From a virus: a stretch of 6,051 nucleotides of DNA. A program made the position numbers and the translations under genes. The DNA is taken from the IMG/VR virus record IMGVR_UViG_3300020041_000002, positions 1 to 6,051 of that record. One strand, given 5' to 3'. Shown one piece after another: positions 1-6,051 of the stretch. Within the stretch, counting starts at the first letter, position 1. Each line of letters begins with the position of its first letter. The notes below the pieces were generated by a model. It saw nothing but the letters and a program-made list of their open reading frames with translations, searched no databases and was not told where the DNA came from.

Positions 1-121
1 AAGGCTTTTTGGACACTCGTTTCTTCCATTATTGCCGCTTTGGCTGCCTTTTTCTTGTCCTCATGTTCCGCTCAGACTAGGGTTCAGCGTAGTGGTGTTC
101 ACATCGACACAGTACGTGTTG
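1..121. repeat. Terminal redundancy: exact copy of 5931-6051, the overlap of a circular contig (unit length 5,930 nt)
   Basis: Base-by-base comparison shows 1-121 identical to 5931-6051. An ORF reads continuously across the implied junction. Confidence 0.96.
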
Positions 122-159
122 ACTACATTATTCGCTCTAACAATTTAAATAACGTGTAG
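1..159 (+). CDS. 3' part of a small lipoprotein-like ORF that starts at 5898 on the circle (63 aa in total); partial here because of the window cut
   Basis: Frame 1 is open from base 1 to TAG at 157-159. It continues the frame of ATG 5898. The stop lies 1 nt before the VP2 ATG at 161. Joined translation: MSDTKTPFYKSKAFWTLVSSIIAALAAFFLSSCSAQTRVQRSGVHIDTVRVDYIIRSNNLNNV. Confidence 0.6.
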   Translation, partial: KAFWTLVSSIIAALAAFFLSSCSAQTRVQRSGVHIDTVRVDYIIRSNNLNNV

Positions 160-160
160 T

Positions 161-1408
161 ATGGCTACTCCCGCTGCCACATCTTTTGGTCAAGCTCTTG
201 GTCAATCCGCCGCCTCCTCGGGTGCAACCGGCTTAATCTCTGGTGCTCTTGGCCAGCTTTTCGGCGGCATGACCGCTCGTCGTCAATGGAAGTTTCAGCA
301 AAAACAGATGAAGCTTCAGCAAAAATATGCCCTCGAGCAAATGCAGAAGCAATCTGAACTTTCCTATGCTAACTGGCAAAAACAATTTGACTACGAAAAT
401 GCCTATAATGACCCCTCTAAGGTTTTTGATCGCTACTTGAAGGCTGGCGTAACACCTGCGGCCGTTTTAGGATCGTCGGGCGTTGGTGTTAATGCCACGA
501 TGTCTGGCGGCTCTGCTCCCATGCCTTCTGCTTCTGGTCCTTCCGGTGGTTCACCTGTTACCCCCGGCGGCTTTGCTCCTACCAGCCCCACCGCTATTGC
601 GGAGAGCATGGTTGCGCAATCTACGGTTGACCGCAATACTGCTGCTGCTAATCGAGACGATGCTGAAGCTGATCTTATGAGAGGCAATACTCATAGCGCT
701 GACTGGCGAAAGGAGATGGACAATCTGGAGAGGAAGGCTTTGGAATATCATATCAACAATGCCTCTGAGTTAATTCGCCTTAATCGCGCTTTGGCCGACA
801 TTCATGCCGCTGACGCCGAGTACGCAGATCTTATGGCTACATATAAGTTTCAAGACTTTGTCGCCATGTATGCGAAGCATGTTGAGGAAGCAAATCAGAT
901 CAAGAAATACAATGATAAATATTTCGATTCTGTTTACGCTGCCCAAATCGCCCGAGATTATGCCGCTGCCTACGAATCTGCCGCCTCTGGTGATGTCTTA
1001 GAAGTTGAGTCTGAAATACGTAAGGTAAACCTGGCTGATCTTCGTGAGTGGTTTAATCTCAATTGGGATTCAGAAGTTGATGTCCCCGAGGTTGATGGAA
1101 AAGGTAAGCCTACCGGTAAGACAACGAAAATGACAGGTCGTCAGATTCACCAGCAGCTTATGGGTCTCGCCGCCTCGGAAGGCCAGCAAGACCTTTCTGG
1201 TCGTTGGTTTCAAAATCGGTCCAGCAAGAACGCCTTTGGTTATGGTTTAGCGAGAACCGCCTTGCTTGGCGCCATGGCTATCGCCGGCACGGCTGTTACG
1301 AAGCGTCCTACCCCTGTCGATTACGATGAAAGTAGAGAAATCTACGGCAAAGATGGCAGATACGCTGGAACTACGAAGTCGTCCCGTCGTTATGTAAGAG
1401 AAAATTAA
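161..1408 (+). CDS. VP2: Microviridae VP2-type DNA pilot / minor capsid protein (415 aa)
   Basis: The layout is typical of VP2/H-like pilot proteins. There is a Gly/Ala/Ser-rich N-terminus, then a Q/K-rich coiled segment (RRQWKFQQKQMKLQQKYALEQMQKQ). That is followed by NAYNDPSKVFDRYLKAGVTPAAVLG, which resembles the conserved ...M.RLK.AGLNP... VP2 motif. A G/S/P low-complexity linker follows. ATG start, TAA stop at 1406-1408. Confidence 0.82.
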   Translation: MATPAATSFGQALGQSAASSGATGLISGALGQLFGGMTARRQWKFQQKQMKLQQKYALEQMQKQSELSYANWQKQFDYENAYNDPSKVFDRYLKAGVTPAAVLGSSGVGVNATMSGGSAPMPSASGPSGGSPVTPGGFAPTSPTAIAESMVAQSTVDRNTAAANRDDAEADLMRGNTHSADWRKEMDNLERKALEYHINNASELIRLNRALADIHAADAEYADLMATYKFQDFVAMYAKHVEEANQIKKYNDKYFDSVYAAQIARDYAAAYESAASGDVLEVESEIRKVNLADLREWFNLNWDSEVDVPEVDGKGKPTGKTTKMTGRQIHQQLMGLAASEGQQDLSGRWFQNRSSKNAFGYGLARTALLGAMAIAGTAVTKRPTPVDYDESREIYGKDGRYAGTTKSSRRYVREN

Positions 1409-1434
1409 CCAATTTTTTCGACTTTTTAACCTTT

Positions 1435-1462
1435 TTTGTTTGCTCTTTTTGTTTTATATTTG
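1435..1462 (+). promoter_or_regulatory. Candidate Bacteroidetes-type promoter: -33 TTTG (1435-1438) and -7 TAnnTTTG (TATATTTG, 1455-1462)
   Basis: The -7 element matches the Bacteroides sigma-ABfr consensus TAnnTTTG exactly. A TTTG starts 20 nt upstream. The site lies in the T-rich 80-nt gap between VP2 and ORF105, about 27 nt before ATG 1489. Confidence 0.4.
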
Positions 1463-1488
1463 CGTTGTAAACCAATAACCATGTTACC

Positions 1489-1806
1489 ATGAAAACAAAT
1501 AAAAAGTGTAGTTTCTCGGATTTACCCATTAATGTTGTCGAATACATGTTTACCGAATGGCTTGTCCGCCAAGGTTTATTTTCCGTGTATAAGGCGAATT
1601 ACGAAAAATTTTATCCAAATCATCGACCTTTTCGCGACAATTTGCGCGTTAAGATTCGCAGCCTATGCCGCTCGTCTATTCTTGGTGTCGAAAATCTCAT
1701 TTCTACGTCTTTCCCGTTTACCATGACTCCGGAAGGTTATAACTTTTGGTTAGATCGATCGAATCTTTGGCGGCAGTTTTGTAAAAAATTTAAGTCTATT
1801 CTCTAA
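1489..1806 (+). CDS. Hypothetical protein, 105 aa, no family recognised
   Basis: ATG-initiated ORF in the gene-sense strand directly downstream of the candidate promoter. Codon third positions are T/C-biased like the core genes. The next ORF starts 11 nt after its TAA. Confidence 0.6.
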   Translation: MKTNKKCSFSDLPINVVEYMFTEWLVRQGLFSVYKANYEKFYPNHRPFRDNLRVKIRSLCRSSILGVENLISTSFPFTMTPEGYNFWLDRSNLWRQFCKKFKSIL

Positions 1807-1817
1807 ATCGTATTATT

Positions 1818-2141
1818 ATGACACAAGTTCATGTTGTTATTCGTCGAGTTAATCCGGCCCTTAAAATCGACCTCGCCCAGGTAGGTCATCTCAAAGATGG
1901 TCGTTTTGAACCCCTTCCTTTTAGCGCCTTTAAGGATACCCCTATTGCGCGCTTTCTGAAGAGCTCTCACATTAGCGATTCGCTTTACGTCGATCATTCG
2001 GATGCTCTCCATCTTGTTGTTGCTTGTGGAGATATCCCCGGCTCCGCCGTCGATTTTTTCGACAATACGATGGTACTTACTTTTAATTCTGAACTCAACT
2101 ACGATGAAAGCACGACGAAAGAAGAAGGGACGAGGAACTAA
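1818..2141 (+). CDS. Hypothetical protein, 107 aa, no family recognised
   Basis: ATG start 11 nt after the ORF105 stop. T/C-ending codon bias matches VP1/VP2/VP4. The translation has globular-looking composition (VVIRRVNPALKIDLAQVGHLKDGRFEPLPFSAFKD...). TAA at 2139-2141. Confidence 0.5.
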   Translation: MTQVHVVIRRVNPALKIDLAQVGHLKDGRFEPLPFSAFKDTPIARFLKSSHISDSLYVDHSDALHLVVACGDIPGSAVDFFDNTMVLTFNSELNYDESTTKEEGTRN

Positions 2142-2390
2142 AGTAGTAACCCGCCCGCTTGGTGGAAAAGTTCTTTGACTGTAAGCTCTCGGGAGAGTTC
2201 TCCCTCTCCTGGGAGTTTTCGCCCATATATAGAATCGTGTGCCGTTAAGCGCGAGGCGAGTAATTGTTTCCGGACGCCGAAGATATCGCGGATGCGAGAT
2301 CGAGGCCGGAAACAGCGCAGCCCGCGTAGGCACACAGTTTTCGCGCTCGAAAGTACCGTCTTTCGAAGCGCAAAGTATTATTCTTTGATC
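2142..2390 (+). other. Structured, relatively GC-rich segment with no convincing coding capacity; candidate ssDNA complementary-strand origin, regulatory leader or ncRNA
   Basis: Hand count of 2181-2380 gives about 54% G+C, which looks higher than the flanking genes by eye. Hairpins read directly: GGGAG/CTCCC (2191-2195/2200-2204). GTTTCCGG/CCGGAAAC (2266-2273/2306-2313) encloses GATATCGC/GCGAGATC (2282-2289/2294-2301, one A.G mismatch, GGAT loop). An 11-bp stem with one bulge sits at 2343-2353/2360-2371. The frame-0 translation is low-complexity and Arg-rich. The only ATG in the segment is at 2292. Confidence 0.5.
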
Positions 2391-2591
2391 ATGGATATTT
2401 TTGATTTCCACCCCCGTTTTTCTCCTGTAATCAACAGTATTCCCTACCGTTTTTCTATTGGCGCTTACCGTGGCAAGAAACGCGTTGTTATTGCCTGGTT
2501 CGCCGAAGAAGAGCCTGCTATTAATTATCTCACTCGCTGTCGTCTTGACTATCCTTCTATCAAATTTGATTGTCTTAGGAGCTTTTTGTAA
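2391..2591 (+). CDS. Small hypothetical protein (66 aa from ATG 2391; 99 aa if ATG 2292 is used); its stop overlaps the VP4 start
   Basis: TAA at 2589-2591 shares its last A with the VP4 ATG (2591-2593), forming TAATG. That is the classic arrangement for translational coupling. The sequence from 2391 (MDIFDFHPRFSPVINSIPYRFSIGAYRGKKRVVIAWFAEEEPAINYL...) looks protein-like. The start codon is uncertain. Confidence 0.5.
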   Translation: MDIFDFHPRFSPVINSIPYRFSIGAYRGKKRVVIAWFAEEEPAINYLTRCRLDYPSIKFDCLRSFL

Positions 2592-3661
2592 TGCCTTGTC
2601 TCTCTCCCATATGGATTCGAAACCGTCGCTATTTCGACAAGAAGAACCCTTGTCGAGGTGGTTCTGATGTTGCAAAGTCTGCGCTTGCTCTTCGCCCTTG
2701 GGATGTCGCCCGACAATGGCTCATGGTCCCCTGTGGTAAGTGTGAGGAGTGTTTGCGTCGTCTGCGTAATGACTGGTTCGTTCGCTTGGAGCGAGAGTTA
2801 GCTCGTTGTAAGGCTGAATCCCGGCAGGCTATTTTTATTACAATTACTATCTCGCCCAAATATTACGATGAAGCGCTGCGTGATCCTTCCAAGTTTATCC
2901 GACGGTGGAATGAGAGAATTCGCCACAAGATTGGTCATTCTTTTAAACATGCCTTTTTCCAGGAGTTTGGCACCCACCCAGAAACAGGATCGGCCCCGCG
3001 CCTTCATTTTCACGGCTTTCTTTTTGGGACCGATTGTCTTTACAACGAGATCCGATCGGCCGTCCGTGATTTAGGCTTCGTTTGGCTCGCAAAAGGAACG
3101 CACAAACGTGCACGATATGTTGTTAAATACGTTACTAAGCAAATTTATTTTGACCCCACTGAAATATCTAACCAAAATGTCGTTTTAGATGGAAAGACTA
3201 CATCTTTATCTTGCCTCCTCCAACATCGCCGTTATACGCGAAAATTCGTATCTGCTGGCGTTGGTGATTTTCTTGGTTATATGCCTCGCCCTTCTACCCG
3301 TACTTCGACGTGGTCTTACTTTGATTTTGAGAAACGTGTCAATTATAACTACTCGATTCCTCGATATTATCTTAAGTACCTTAAACCGGAAGACGACGTT
3401 GCCCGCTCGATTGCCGCTGCTGACGCTTATTCACGTTTTAGCAAGTCTCCTCTGGTTAAACGTATTGTGTCTCTGTGTGTTGATCGGTTCTCCCTCAATT
3501 CCTCCGTATCCCGTAGAGCGTCATATTCGTGGGAGCAAAAGCAAATAATGCGTTTTTCTGCTTCTTCTCGCAAGATGCCAGAATTCGATCCTCCTACCTG
3601 GCTTGACCAGGATATTGTTCGATTTTGGCAAGACCACTACAAACTTCAACTAATTATTTAA
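2591..3661 (+). CDS. VP4: Microviridae VP4 rolling-circle replication initiator (HUH endonuclease superfamily), 356 aa
   Basis: The N-terminal MPCLSPIWIRN and the Cys cluster PCGKCEEC (2729-2752) are typical of VP4. RCR motif 1 is FITITI (2834-2851). Motif 2 is HFH in RLHFHGFLFG (3005-3013). Motif 3 is YVVKYVTK with the catalytic Tyr (3116-3139). An AGGAG at 2577-2581 lies 9 nt before the ATG. Confidence 0.93.
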   Translation: MPCLSPIWIRNRRYFDKKNPCRGGSDVAKSALALRPWDVARQWLMVPCGKCEECLRRLRNDWFVRLERELARCKAESRQAIFITITISPKYYDEALRDPSKFIRRWNERIRHKIGHSFKHAFFQEFGTHPETGSAPRLHFHGFLFGTDCLYNEIRSAVRDLGFVWLAKGTHKRARYVVKYVTKQIYFDPTEISNQNVVLDGKTTSLSCLLQHRRYTRKFVSAGVGDFLGYMPRPSTRTSTWSYFDFEKRVNYNYSIPRYYLKYLKPEDDVARSIAAADAYSRFSKSPLVKRIVSLCVDRFSLNSSVSRRASYSWEQKQIMRFSASSRKMPEFDPPTWLDQDIVRFWQDHYKLQLII

Positions 3662-3664
3662 TTT

Positions 3665-5455
3665 ATGGGAAAACAACCTTTTATTTCTCACGCCGTTAAT
3701 GGCTATTCTCGCTATGATGTTCCCGAGAGTAAGGCCTTTACGTGTACGCCAGGAATTTTGTATCCAGTGCGGATTGATTTTATTAACGCTCGAGACCGTG
3801 TGTCTATCGAGCAAGGTATTGATGTTCGTAGCAACCCGTTGGCTGTTCCGACATTTAATCCTTATACTATTCGCTTGCATCGTTTTTGGGTGCCACTTCA
3901 ACTTTATCATCCTGAGTTGAGGACGAATAGCAGTAAGTTCGACATGAATGAGTTGAGCTTGAACTTTGTTGCCGCCTCGTCAACTTCGTCCTATCCGTAC
4001 ACTACGAACAATTACCCTTACTCAAATTCACTGCTTCGTTGGTTGCGTGTCGTCCCCGCTTCTATTCCGTCGACAACTTCCAGTAATGTTCCCATGTCGG
4101 CCAACCTTTCGGCCGCTCAATTAGGATATCCCTTAGGTTGGTGTACCGCTGATTCTTATCTCGCCTATTGGGATATCGTTCGCAATTATTATGGCTATTC
4201 GCAGTGGGGTCTCTATTCCTTTGCTTGGCCCAGCAGCTGGTATCTCATACCCAACAGTACTGGTGCCGCATATAATGTCCTTCAGTTCAGTGACACTCAG
4301 TGCTTTTTTTCGCAAAGATTTGGAAATCTTGAATTCTTAGATGCTTATTTCGAGAGCCAATTCTACCCCTCAGTCGTACCATCGACGAATAATACATATA
4401 ATAGAGGAAATCTATTTTCTCAGATATTGCTTTCGGACCTTGGTGCCACGATTACTGCCTCTAAGGATGGCTATCCCGTTTCCTCTCTTTACCCTGGAAG
4501 TACTTCGTTGTCCTCCGCAGGTCCTGCTAATCAGTTTGCTAACGGTCCCAGTGATACAACCCTCACTCCGCTTGGCGCATTTCTCGTCGCTCACCCAATG
4601 GCTGTTATACCTTCGAATCCCGATCGTTATAGCCGTTTGCTTCCCGTTGGTAGCTCCGAAGGTGTTTCCATGACTGGCGTTTCGACTATACCGCAGTTAG
4701 CTATTGCTTCGCGACTTCAAGAGTACAAGGATTTGCTTGGTGCTGGCGGATCCCGTTATAGCGATTGGTTGGAGACTTTCTTTGCTTCAAAGATTGAACA
4801 CGTCGATAGACCTAAGTTGCTTTTTAGTGCTTCGCAGACTGTTAACGTGCAGATTATCATGAATCAAGCGGGACAGAATAATTTTTCCGGACCGAGCGTA
4901 AACGGCCCTCTTGGTCAGCAGGGTGGCGCTATCGCCTTCAACCAAACCCTTGGTCGTCGTCAGTCTTACTATTTTCGCGAGCCTGGCTATATGATTGATA
5001 TGCTGAGCATTCGCCCTGTTTATTATTGGGCAGGTGTTTACCCCGATTACCTTCATTATACCGGTCCCGATTATTTCAATCCGATTTATAATGATATTGG
5101 ATATCAAGACGTTCCTGGCTTCCAATTTGGCTTTGGGACCACGTCAACCGCTGAAACCGTGGCTTACGAGCCTTGTTTTAACGAGTTTCGCTCCTCCTAT
5201 GATGAAGTTCTTGGCCAGTTGTCTCGATTCCAGGGTGCTTCCGATGCCCTTCCTGTCTATTCTTATTGGGTTCAACAGCGCGTTTTGTCGGCGAGCTACA
5301 ATCAGTATTACTCCCTTCTGTTTGTAGATATCGCACAAGTAAATTCGCCTTTTGCTTCCAATAAAGAGGATAATTTCTTTATCAACCTCTCGTATTCTGT
5401 CCAGAAGAAGAATTTGGTTAATAAAACATTTGCAACCCGCCTGTCTAATCGTTAA
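3665..5455 (+). CDS. VP1: Microviridae major capsid protein VP1 (F-like jelly-roll), 596 aa
   Basis: Several blocks are conserved in gokusho/alpa-type VP1. They are PGILYPV...NARDRVSI...RSNPLAVPTF...HRFWVPLQLY near the N-terminus, AYWDIVRNYYG, PDRYSRLLP, and LAIASRLQEYKDLLGAGGSRYSDWLETFF...VDRPKLL. The C-terminal block is AYEPCFNEFRSSYDEVLGQL. The ATG lies 3 nt after the VP4 stop. Confidence 0.93.
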   Translation: MGKQPFISHAVNGYSRYDVPESKAFTCTPGILYPVRIDFINARDRVSIEQGIDVRSNPLAVPTFNPYTIRLHRFWVPLQLYHPELRTNSSKFDMNELSLNFVAASSTSSYPYTTNNYPYSNSLLRWLRVVPASIPSTTSSNVPMSANLSAAQLGYPLGWCTADSYLAYWDIVRNYYGYSQWGLYSFAWPSSWYLIPNSTGAAYNVLQFSDTQCFFSQRFGNLEFLDAYFESQFYPSVVPSTNNTYNRGNLFSQILLSDLGATITASKDGYPVSSLYPGSTSLSSAGPANQFANGPSDTTLTPLGAFLVAHPMAVIPSNPDRYSRLLPVGSSEGVSMTGVSTIPQLAIASRLQEYKDLLGAGGSRYSDWLETFFASKIEHVDRPKLLFSASQTVNVQIIMNQAGQNNFSGPSVNGPLGQQGGAIAFNQTLGRRQSYYFREPGYMIDMLSIRPVYYWAGVYPDYLHYTGPDYFNPIYNDIGYQDVPGFQFGFGTTSTAETVAYEPCFNEFRSSYDEVLGQLSRFQGASDALPVYSYWVQQRVLSASYNQYYSLLFVDIAQVNSPFASNKEDNFFINLSYSVQKKNLVNKTFATRLSNR

Positions 5456-5467
5456 TATATTGATCTT

Positions 5468-5764
5468 ATGGCACTTGATTGGTTACTTGAAGATGCTCCC
5501 GCTTATGTTTCTCGCGGTCAGCGCATTCTTTCCGTTCTTAATGGTTCTGGCTCCGTCGATGTCCTTCCTGGTCGTCCGGATGTGACGGCGGAACCTTCCG
5601 ATTTTGAGAAGGGCGAGAAATACAATCCCGATATTGATTTCGACCCTAATTCGTTCTCTCGTATGGACAAGTTCGATGGTCTCGAGGTTGGTCAGGAACT
5701 TATTGATTCTCAGCTCGATAAGGCTAAGTCCGCCTCTAAGTCCTCCGCTTCTGAAGAAAAATAG
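5468..5764 (+). CDS. Acidic hypothetical protein, 98 aa; possible scaffolding-type protein (inference only)
   Basis: ATG 12 nt after the VP1 stop, with T/C-biased codons. By hand count there are about 20 Asp/Glu versus 11 Arg/Lys. I see no match to the gokushovirus VP3 motif I remember. Confidence 0.6.
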   Translation: MALDWLLEDAPAYVSRGQRILSVLNGSGSVDVLPGRPDVTAEPSDFEKGEKYNPDIDFDPNSFSRMDKFDGLEVGQELIDSQLDKAKSASKSSASEEK

Positions 5765-5794
5765 TATGTCCTTTACTTGATGATATATGCTACG

Positions 5795-5873
5795 TGCGCG
5801 GACCCCTTCTGCAAGAGTCCGTGAATTGCTGAAGGTTATTGGTAATGACTGCAGGAGAGGCCGCGCATTTTTC
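5795..5873 (+). terminator. Long imperfect hairpin followed by TTTTT; candidate intrinsic terminator and/or ssDNA origin hairpin
   Basis: TGCGCGG (5795-5801) pairs with CCGCGCA (5861-5867). The stem continues inward, with CCCCTTCTGCA (5803-5813) against TGCAGGAGAGG (5850-5860) carrying one bulge, one mismatch and one T.G pair. A further AGTC/GACT segment follows. A T5 run occupies 5868-5872. It sits in the 133-nt gap after the capsid gene block. Confidence 0.5.
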
Positions 5874-5897
5874 TATCGTTCTTTAATTTTTAAATTT

Positions 5898-6051
5898 ATG
5901 TCGGATACTAAGACCCCTTTTTATAAGTCGAAGGCTTTTTGGACACTCGTTTCTTCCATTATTGCCGCTTTGGCTGCCTTTTTCTTGTCCTCATGTTCCG
6001 CTCAGACTAGGGTTCAGCGTAGTGGTGTTCACATCGACACAGTACGTGTTG
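5898..6051 (+). CDS. 5' part of the small lipoprotein-like ORF (63 aa on the circle, ending at window position 159); an alternative in-frame ATG at 5787 would give 100 aa
   Basis: ATG 5898 is preceded by an A/T-rich leader. The N-terminus has a charged n-region (MSDTKTPFYKSK), a hydrophobic core (AFWTLVSSIIAALAAFF) and the lipobox-like L-S-S-C with Cys at residue 33. The ORF is truncated by the window edge and is absent from the supplied ORF track. Confidence 0.6.
   Translation, partial: MSDTKTPFYKSKAFWTLVSSIIAALAAFFLSSCSAQTRVQRSGVHIDTVRV
5931..6051. repeat. Second copy of the 121-nt terminal redundancy (matches 1-121)
   Basis: Exact identity to 1-121 on direct comparison. Confidence 0.96.

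Follow-up and report, generated by a model that had tools for sequence, protein, structure and literature searches.

A conserved gene upstream of VP2 encodes a predicted lipoprotein in gut microviruses of probable Bacteroidales hosts

The IMG/VR virus record IMGVR_UViG_3300020041_000002 (positions 1 to 6,051, analyzed at its full length of 6,051 nucleotides and referred to here as the window) carries a small gene directly upstream of the gene for the microvirus DNA pilot protein VP2, and it is this small gene and its predicted lipoprotein product that we characterize here. The window opens with 121 bases that recur without a difference at 5931-6051, and because of this direct repeat at both ends we take the window to be a 5,930-nt circle. 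When the circle is closed, the frame opened by the ATG at 5898 reads through the junction to a TAG at 157-159 and specifies a 63-residue protein, MSDTKTPFYKSKAFWTLVSSIIAALAAFFLSSCSAQTRVQRSGVHIDTVRVDYIIRSNNLNNV. A single nucleotide, T160, separates the stop codon from the VP2 ATG at 161. The open reading frame (ORF) is missing from a mechanical list of the ORFs of the window because it runs off the window end. An initial annotation had proposed both this junction-spanning ORF and the placing of its stop 1 nt before VP2, and both proposals stand: the terminal repeat closes the circle and the frame is continuous across it. The start is preceded by an A/T-rich stretch without a Shine-Dalgarno sequence.

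The small ORF is widely conserved. There are 61 microvirus genomes in GenBank with DNA similarity to the window, and in the first ten fetched a homologous small ORF ends 1-11 nt before the VP2 start. The description of the ORF as hidden is accurate only for the present linearization, since relatives in GenBank are annotated with it as a hypothetical protein (the label used in 7 of the 10 genomes fetched first) and it is called in hundreds of contigs. A protein search returned 382 relatives, nearly all on contigs of microvirus size or smaller (the longest being 12.1 kb); among the 120 listed of these 382, the length is 63 aa in 74 and 100 aa in 42. IMG/VR contributed a further 210 loci, of which 80 were kept, and the comparison set comprised 91 genomes, namely the window and 90 loci. 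Each of the 91 carries an intact 63-codon ORF, and close relatives share the stop-T-ATG(VP2) junction. Pooled Nei-Gojobori analysis of 86 distinct gene sequences gives a dN/dS of 0.068 with synonymous sites near saturation (pS 0.63), and values of 2.4 and 2.7 for the other two frames of the same nucleotides. Most codons are found in several synonymous forms, so it is the protein that is conserved, and an overlapping DNA element is not the source of the conservation. By comparison, only 11-32% of relatives keep alternative-frame ORFs of about 100 codons open. The refuting conditions on conservation that the initial annotation had set are not borne out, as the frame is conserved, free of interruptions and keeps its Cys codon. 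There is next to no doubt that positions 5898-5930 plus 1-159 are a genuine 63-codon protein-coding gene, core in a subclade of gut microviruses, and the initial annotation was right to treat it as real.

An in-frame ATG at 5787 would give a 100-aa product with a 37-residue Arg-rich extension, a caveat raised at the outset. About 40 relatives, like the window, have an open frame from this ATG, and the longer product is annotated in several records and by gene callers. However, the frame upstream of Met-1 is closed within at most 7 codons in 35 of the 91 genomes, from which it follows that the extension is not a conserved product, and divergent members have unrelated sequence upstream of the 63-aa start. 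The stretch from ATG 5787 is instead conserved as DNA and holds a stem-loop. The longer product is extremely improbable, and the matter can be regarded as settled in favor of the 63-aa protein. No other 100-nt block of the genome is as conserved as the leader containing this stretch (mean column identity 0.92); the leader has frame-breaking changes in relatives, is kept even in divergent ones, and has a DNA fold with a z-score of -1.8. Its possible roles are those of a terminator or regulatory hairpin and of the complementary-strand origin of the single-stranded DNA (ssDNA) genome. No Rfam match was present in the leader or around the lipoprotein gene, and sigma-70 promoter and terminator scans around the gene returned nothing, the promoter scan being one that does not cover Bacteroidota promoters.

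The protein has the organization of a prolipoprotein. Lys5, Lys10 and Lys12 are followed by 17 residues, Phe14 to Leu30, none of which is charged, and then by the L-S-S-C motif ending in Cys33, which would leave a mature peptide of 31 residues; each of these elements lies where the initial annotation had placed it. We judged the motif by the rule [LVI][ASTVI][GAS]C with the Cys about 15-35 residues from the start, a re-implemented pattern of the PROSITE PS51257 type. The Cys is at position 33, a Lys or Arg falls within the first seven residues, and six uncharged residues precede the box, itself read as three small or hydrophobic residues, [AGS] and the Cys. The pattern fits 206 of 224 family sequences, and the misfits are mostly frameshifted or truncated calls or near-variants. 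Cys33 is found in all 86 unique close relatives, where the residue at -1 is always Ser, and the Cys is also found in every intact distant family member. A 17-sequence alignment across the types described below shows M1, S11, K12, F14, W15, T16, L17, I21, A23, A24, L25, A27, F29, C33 and D47 to be invariant. Given a 17-sequence alignment, AlphaFold2 returned a model with a mean predicted local distance difference test score (pLDDT) of 66, comprising a helix at residues 12-33 (pLDDT about 87) and strands at 40-44 and 50-54, the hairpin of the mature part reaching a pLDDT of only 50-60. The mature part has a dN/dS of 0.091, falling to 0.057 without the last 5 residues.

The family is modular. The mature domain falls into discrete types (A, B, C and D; Table 1), each strongly conserved within type; there are rarer types too, and at least one recombinant, P0137, which joins types A and B. 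Members P0216, P0218, P0219, P0225 and P0227 have the same Cys position and mature domain behind unrelated signal peptides, while P0196, P0200, P0205 and P0207 have the same signal peptide and Cys with a different mature domain. The Cys thus survives a swap of either flanking module, which is the pattern predicted for a lipidation site. A profile search of 1.84 billion representative proteins gave 76 clusters (50% identity) at E below 1e-3, which are confined to contigs of microvirus size and a single Alistipes prophage. The top profile match, P0153 (2,657 aa, with 41 matched stretches), was rejected as a false positive because it is a tandem repeat whose score sums weak matches to a hydrophobic-Cys repeat. 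Neither the 63-aa protein nor the representatives of the other types had any significant match in Pfam, PHROGs, NCBIfam, PADLOC or a PDB sequence profile search, and the sub-threshold NCBIfam matches are exclusively to the signal/Cys regions of known lipoprotein families. The fit to the lipobox, the invariant Cys (86 of 86) and its retention behind unrelated signals all support the lipoprotein-type signal originally proposed, and on this sequence evidence the product is very likely a prolipoprotein that is lipid-anchored after processing.

To assess distribution without bias, we used GenBank genomes picked by VP1 or DNA similarity and not by the lipoprotein gene. All 21 sampled relatives with VP1 identity of at least about 46% have the gene directly upstream of VP2, and it is absent from two genomes at about 40% VP1 identity. 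This implies a core gene of the subclade and not a patchy accessory. The types are swapped between close relatives and shuffled relative to the capsid, such that the closest VP1 (L009, about 75% identical) is paired with type B. Type has no association with the VP1 variable region (p=0.13), and the prediction of a receptor mask, that type should track this capsid region, was rejected accordingly. Type does track VP2, which is 64-79% identical in close type-A genomes (mature domain >=70%) versus about 45% or less in others. The tight coupling to VP2 suggested by the initial annotation holds in this subclade but not in a second clade, in which the gene is placed elsewhere.

Scanning one genome per prokaryotic species identified a single locus, a microvirus of ~5.7 kb integrated in Alistipes montrealensis kh20 (L091 7878-13624, on the 839-kb scaffold1). 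This prophage is flanked by a 17-bp direct repeat, TTACTATTATGTTAAAT, with copies 5,730 bp apart; the host genes next to it are relA/spoT, HIT and an HTH gene at one end and a formate/nitrite transporter gene at the other end. The HTH_3 gene adjoining the lipoprotein gene was considered as a co-expressed prophage repressor and rejected, because it lies outside the 17-bp repeats and is thus a host gene. VP1 and VP2 of the prophage have 30% identity or less to those of the window, and yet the lipoprotein mature domain is 73% identical, which points to a host component and not a phage protein as the partner of the peptide. Alistipes is the host of this one prophage relative. The hosts of the family are probably Bacteroidales, since the Alistipes prophage carries the gene and the A/T-rich leader lacking a Shine-Dalgarno sequence fits such hosts.

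In the maturation pathway that these features suggest, the Lys-rich N-terminus and the hydrophobic helix of 17-19 residues would direct passage through Sec, Lgt would lipidate Cys33, and signal peptidase II would then cut before this residue, leaving a lipid-anchored beta-hairpin peptide of ~30 aa. In Bacteroides, lipoproteins are exposed on the surface only if they have a CS(D/E)2 export signal and otherwise face the periplasm (PMC6222051). Only 5 of 206 members have any acidic residue between +2 and +6, and there is no LES-type motif after Cys33. We infer a product that is exported, lipidated and periplasm-facing, and that binds a host envelope component.

Several observations weigh against a simple exported lipopeptide. 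For a signal peptidase II signal, both the n-region (13 aa) and the h-region (17-19 aa) are long, and a membrane anchor is possible. Six type-B clusters have an atypical Glu at -2 (L-E-S-C). The signal half is under tighter constraint than the mature half (dN/dS 0.047 versus 0.091), and is 55-91% identical among members with mature domains that are only ~23% identical. Ordinary targeting signals are not constrained in sequence to this degree, and the unusual constraint indicates that the helix probably also has a sequence-specific role. The second clade, that of the Alistipes prophage (about 30 clusters, including L091, L092 and L106), poses a further difficulty. Here there is no stop after the mature domain; about 130 further codons, poorly conserved, run across a gene of ~135 aa that is read in another frame, giving ORFs of 180-220 aa (L091 7977-8585; L092 1512-2114; L106 ~4670-5320). 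These end in a conserved basic tail (...RRGGRRGK..IPLGGSHL) that in this clade is without its own start codon; the lipoprotein part and the tail are conserved and the middle is not. The long ORF may be translated as a single product, may serve re-initiation or frameshifting, or may be read-through that is tolerated, but a run-on of ~130 codons into a J-like tail is hard to square with a simple exported peptide.

In the window the basic tail is a separate 24-codon ORF at 2104-2178 (plus strand), MKARRKKKGRGTKVVTRPLGGKVL, which is not among the listed ORFs, overlaps the end of ORF 1818-2141 and is conserved in 74 of 74 complete genomes. We take it to resemble the small basic DNA-binding protein J of phiX174. 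The second clade also has a tiny single-helix ORF right after VP2 (L091 12802-12906, …VIRHLWRKSK; L092 601-714, …LIRYLWRKAK), possibly another small membrane protein.

The remaining genes of the window are the standard microvirus set (Table 1). The G+C-rich non-coding gap contains two inverted repeats, 2183-2197/2204-2218 and 2265-2273/2306-2314.

Table 1. Positions of the lipoprotein gene, its parts and the other features of the window, with the mature-domain types of the family
Feature	Position	Strand	Description
Non-coding leader	5785..5897	+	GTGCGCGG...CCGCGCA stem, then TTTTTCT; contains spurious in-frame ATG 5787
Lipoprotein gene, 5' part	5898..6051	+	Start, n-region, hydrophobic core, lipobox, first mature residues; 5931-6051 duplicate 1-121
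Lipoprotein gene, remainder	1..159	+	Codon 12 (AAG, 1-3) to codon 63 (154-156), stop TAG 157-159
Lipobox L30-S31-S32-C33	55..66	+	Cys33 codon 64-66 (= 5994-5996): predicted lipidation and cleavage site
Mature 31-aa peptide CSAQTRVQRSGVHIDTVRVDYIIRSNNLNNV	64..156	+	Predicted weak beta-hairpin
Terminal direct repeat	1..121 (= 5931-6051)		Assembly signature of circular genome
VP2 / DNA pilot protein gene	161..1408	+	415 aa; phrog_8689, pilot protein
Two ORFs	1489-1806 and 1818-2141		Each ~105 aa
G+C-rich non-coding gap	2179-2390		Between J-like ORF and 66-aa ORF
66-aa ORF	2391-2591
VP4/Rep	2591-3661
VP1	3665-5455
98-aa ORF	5468-5764
Type A mature domain			...RVQRSGVHIDTVRVDYIIRSNN...; type of the window
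Type B mature domain			...RHYVVQSASSVKSGDTTRTTITYEQVGNFKRP
Type C mature domain			...HRVQQTATSFSGKDSVVMTITYDSRGNIKK

How this virus leaves its host bears directly on what the lipoprotein might do. Searches of Pfam and PHROGs found no peptidase, endolysin, holin family or E homologue in the genome, so that the earlier statement that there is no recognizable lysis gene is correct as far as homology goes. It overlooks, however, a conserved ORF for a two-helix membrane protein within VP4. This 119-codon ATG ORF is overprinted in VP4/Rep at 3189-3548 (plus strand) and is open in 95% of 73 complete relatives, compared with the 11-32% given above for other alternative-frame ORFs of similar length. 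The synonymous-codon diversity of VP4 drops from 0.46 to 0.19 inside the overlap (Mann-Whitney p=4e-27). In the 119-aa product, two strongly hydrophobic helices are combined with a basic tail, a layout like that of holins or single-gene lysis (Sgl) proteins; the product has no family match, and gene finders almost never call the ORF (5 database hits). We regard it as a candidate lysis (E/holin-like) or K-like membrane protein and as a serious rival to the lipoprotein for the lysis function. Two more alternative-frame ORFs on the plus strand, 3699-3920 (73 aa, in the 5' end of VP1) and 2868-3074 (68 aa, in VP4), are open in 86% and 79% of relatives, respectively, and the region 3701-3800 is conserved at 0.91. 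The two relatives that lack the lipoprotein gene contain no peptidase or other replacement lysis family, only unverified alternative-frame hydrophobic ORFs. Having neither lipoprotein nor peptidase, these relatives at about 40% VP1 identity must lyse another way.

For the function of the lipoprotein we tentatively favor superinfection exclusion, exerted through a host envelope component in the manner of Llp and Cor and at the VP2-dependent step of DNA delivery. This reading is only narrowly ahead of, and nearly tied with, a role in virion release akin to that of the colicin lysis proteins. Under exclusion, the anchored peptide would bind a component of the host envelope from within the periplasm, a cell already infected or lysogenic would become refractory to further microvirus entry, and the block would fall at pilot-protein-dependent DNA delivery and not through masking of the receptor used by the capsid. 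To our knowledge, every characterized small phage lipoprotein that is not a spanin is an exclusion protein. Among these, Llp is lipidated and periplasmic and binds the FhuA plug (PMC9586334). The combination of swappable types with strong constraint within each type is the pattern expected of a specificity determinant. Mutations in the pilot protein change host range in the one cultured Bacteroides microvirus (PMC13064476), which, together with the finding that type follows the pilot protein and not the capsid, suggests the DNA-delivery step in preference to receptor masking. Exclusion is further favored by the presence of the gene in a prophage and by the better Sgl-type lysis candidate at 3189-3548 of the same genome. 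Other findings pull away from exclusion. That the gene is present throughout the subclade is more readily explained by an essential function, such as lysis, than by an accessory role. The association with VP2 may be plain linkage, the two genes being 1 nt apart, and it fails in the Alistipes prophage, where a type-A peptide accompanies an unrelated VP2. Finally, searches of Pfam, PHROGs, NCBIfam and PADLOC revealed no homologue among Llp, Cor and the defense or exclusion families.

It is also possible that the lipopeptide is an effector resembling the colicin lysis (bacteriocin release) proteins, which permeabilizes the envelope or triggers a host lytic activity and so releases virions. The ~30-aa lipopeptide would accumulate in the envelope, possibly with its conserved and perhaps stable signal peptide, and would be the single-gene lysis protein of the phage. 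Size and architecture match well: colicin lysis proteins are made as 47-aa precursors, of which 19 aa form the signal and 28 aa the lipidated mature peptide, and their over-expression is lethal (PMC2896534). They activate outer-membrane phospholipase A (PMC2896534; PMC9517006). The genome lacks a peptidase, endolysin or E homologue by homology, the gene is core (21 of 21 relatives) and very strongly constrained, and its signal peptide is more conserved than its mature part. Moreover, small phage genomes normally devote their sole small membrane-protein gene to lysis, and the one lysis mechanism worked out in microviruses is that of phiX174 E (PMC3394797). These points are offset by the lack of any similarity to the colicin lysis family (no Pfam match at E<=0.1 and none in NCBIfam), and by the consideration that phospholipase-type quasi-lysis alone leaves the peptidoglycan closed to a ~25-nm particle. 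The overprinted two-helix ORF in VP4 fits the usual Sgl pattern better, type swaps between close relatives are unexpected for an inhibitor of a conserved essential host target, and the relatives with ~40% VP1 identity have neither this gene nor a peptidase.

Somewhat more doubtful is the proposition that the lipoprotein is a new class of single-gene lysis protein of Bacteroidales microviruses, acting either in the colicin manner or by clogging the lipoprotein maturation machinery of the host (Lgt/LspA/Lol) with its unusually conserved signal peptide and lipobox. Were it true, Lgt/LspA/Lol would be a target not yet known for any phage 'protein antibiotic'.

A different mode of action would follow if the signal were not cleaved. 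The protein would then be an N-in/C-out signal anchor whose conserved helix is the active part, binding an inner-membrane protein in the manner of E or jamming Lgt/LspA/Lol. The transmembrane domain of phiX174 E binds MraY, and E likewise combines a conserved helix with a replaceable C-terminal domain. At 17-19 residues the helix of the lipoprotein is long enough to span the membrane. It is also the most constrained part of the protein (dN/dS 0.042 for codons 11-33), with F14, W15, T16, L17, I21, A23, A24, L25, A27 and F29 invariant across types whose C-terminal domains differ, and the atypical L-E-S-C of some members would be accommodated. An uncleaved anchor is nonetheless unlikely: the Cys and a small residue at -1 are kept where the helix sequence is entirely different (P0216-P0227), and the C-terminal domain is under strong purifying selection within each type.

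Rz1 is known to form intermolecular disulfides. A role as an outer-membrane spanin subunit of the Rz1 kind, which would fuse the inner membrane with the outer one as lysis is completed, had been put forward in the initial annotation and would suit a small lipoprotein with a short mature part and a VP2 whose N-terminal hydrophobic segment and coiled coils are superficially i-spanin-like (PMC3091885), but it is unsupported and most improbable, given that the genome has no endolysin or canonical holin (Pfam, PHROGs) and no identified i-spanin partner, that the neighbors are a 98-aa protein and VP2, itself a virion pilot protein, that the mature peptide is not proline-rich and has no spanin PHROG match, and that Cys33 is the sole Cys of the protein, leaving none for intermolecular disulfides.

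Gut microviruses are among the most abundant phages in animal guts. Outside the phiX174 group, however, microvirus lysis and the exclusion of competitors are essentially uncharted. What we describe is a core gene under strong purifying selection that is predicted to place a lipid-anchored peptide of ~30 residues in the Bacteroidales envelope. The searchable literature contains no description of a microvirus lipoprotein gene, including for the Alistipes microvirus prophages, and reviews name only peptidases and methyltransferases as microvirus accessory genes (PMC9239249). The initial view that lipoproteins are not described in Microviridae therefore holds for that literature but not for sequence databases, where the nr entry DAU60727.1 is named 'MAG TPA: lipoprotein [Microviridae sp.]'. 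Another nr entry, DAI54480.1 (the type-B member P0128), carries the name 'chitin synthase regulator', an automated label that is almost certainly wrong. Either of the two leading roles would, if true, be a first for ssDNA phages. Exclusion would point to an envelope component used in microvirus DNA delivery, and lysis would indicate a new weak point of the Bacteroidales envelope. These ideas are directly testable, as the peptide is short enough for synthesis and the genome small enough to rebuild and reboot, as has been done for a gokushovirus (PMC7062461); Alistipes montrealensis kh20 provides a cultured lysogen for the lipoprotein family.

Among known systems, Llp of T5 and Cor of T1/phi80-like phages are alike in being small phage-encoded lipoproteins with a signal of the signal peptidase II type. 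No sequence similarity to either was detected; the best PHROG match has an E-value of 0.037 and is to a family of unknown function, and Pfam and PADLOC give none. The mature part of Llp is 61 aa long, as against about 30 aa here. Llp and Cor come from tailed coliphages, whereas the gene described here belongs to an ssDNA microvirus of Bacteroidales, is core and not accessory, and has an unusually conserved signal. Ltp of Streptococcus phage TP-J34 is a prophage lipoprotein that blocks DNA injection rather than adsorption. That is the same step as we propose here, since type follows the pilot protein and not the capsid. Ltp is, however, much larger, acts in a Gram-positive host and targets the tape-measure protein, and it has no homology to the lipoprotein of the window.

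The colicin lysis proteins (Lysis_col) have an almost identical layout, with a precursor of ~45-65 aa, a lipobox and a lipidated mature peptide of ~28-31 aa (PMC2896534), and they too serve a small selfish replicon that needs a cytoplasmic product released. Here there is no Pfam match to them, the host phylum and genetic context differ, and their mechanism of activating the outer-membrane phospholipase OmpLA to cause quasi-lysis is not known to release virus particles. Lambda Rz1 and the other o-spanins are likewise small phage lipoproteins of the outer-membrane type, but Rz1 has a partner i-spanin, an endolysin, a proline-rich mature region and a spare Cys, none of which accompanies the gene of the window. 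With phiX174 E the lipoprotein shares the character of a small membrane-targeted microvirus protein in which a hydrophobic helix at the N-terminus is highly conserved and the C-terminal part varies more. E, however, is overprinted, while the lipoprotein gene overlaps no other gene and encodes a lipobox Cys and a C-terminus predicted to be exported (N-in/C-out), and the two have no similarity by PHROG or Pfam; ORF 3189-3548 is a closer architectural analog of E or K than is the lipoprotein gene. By sequence, then, the gene falls outside Llp/Cor, the colicin lysis proteins, the spanins and E, while by its predicted architecture it belongs to the general class of small phage envelope lipoproteins.

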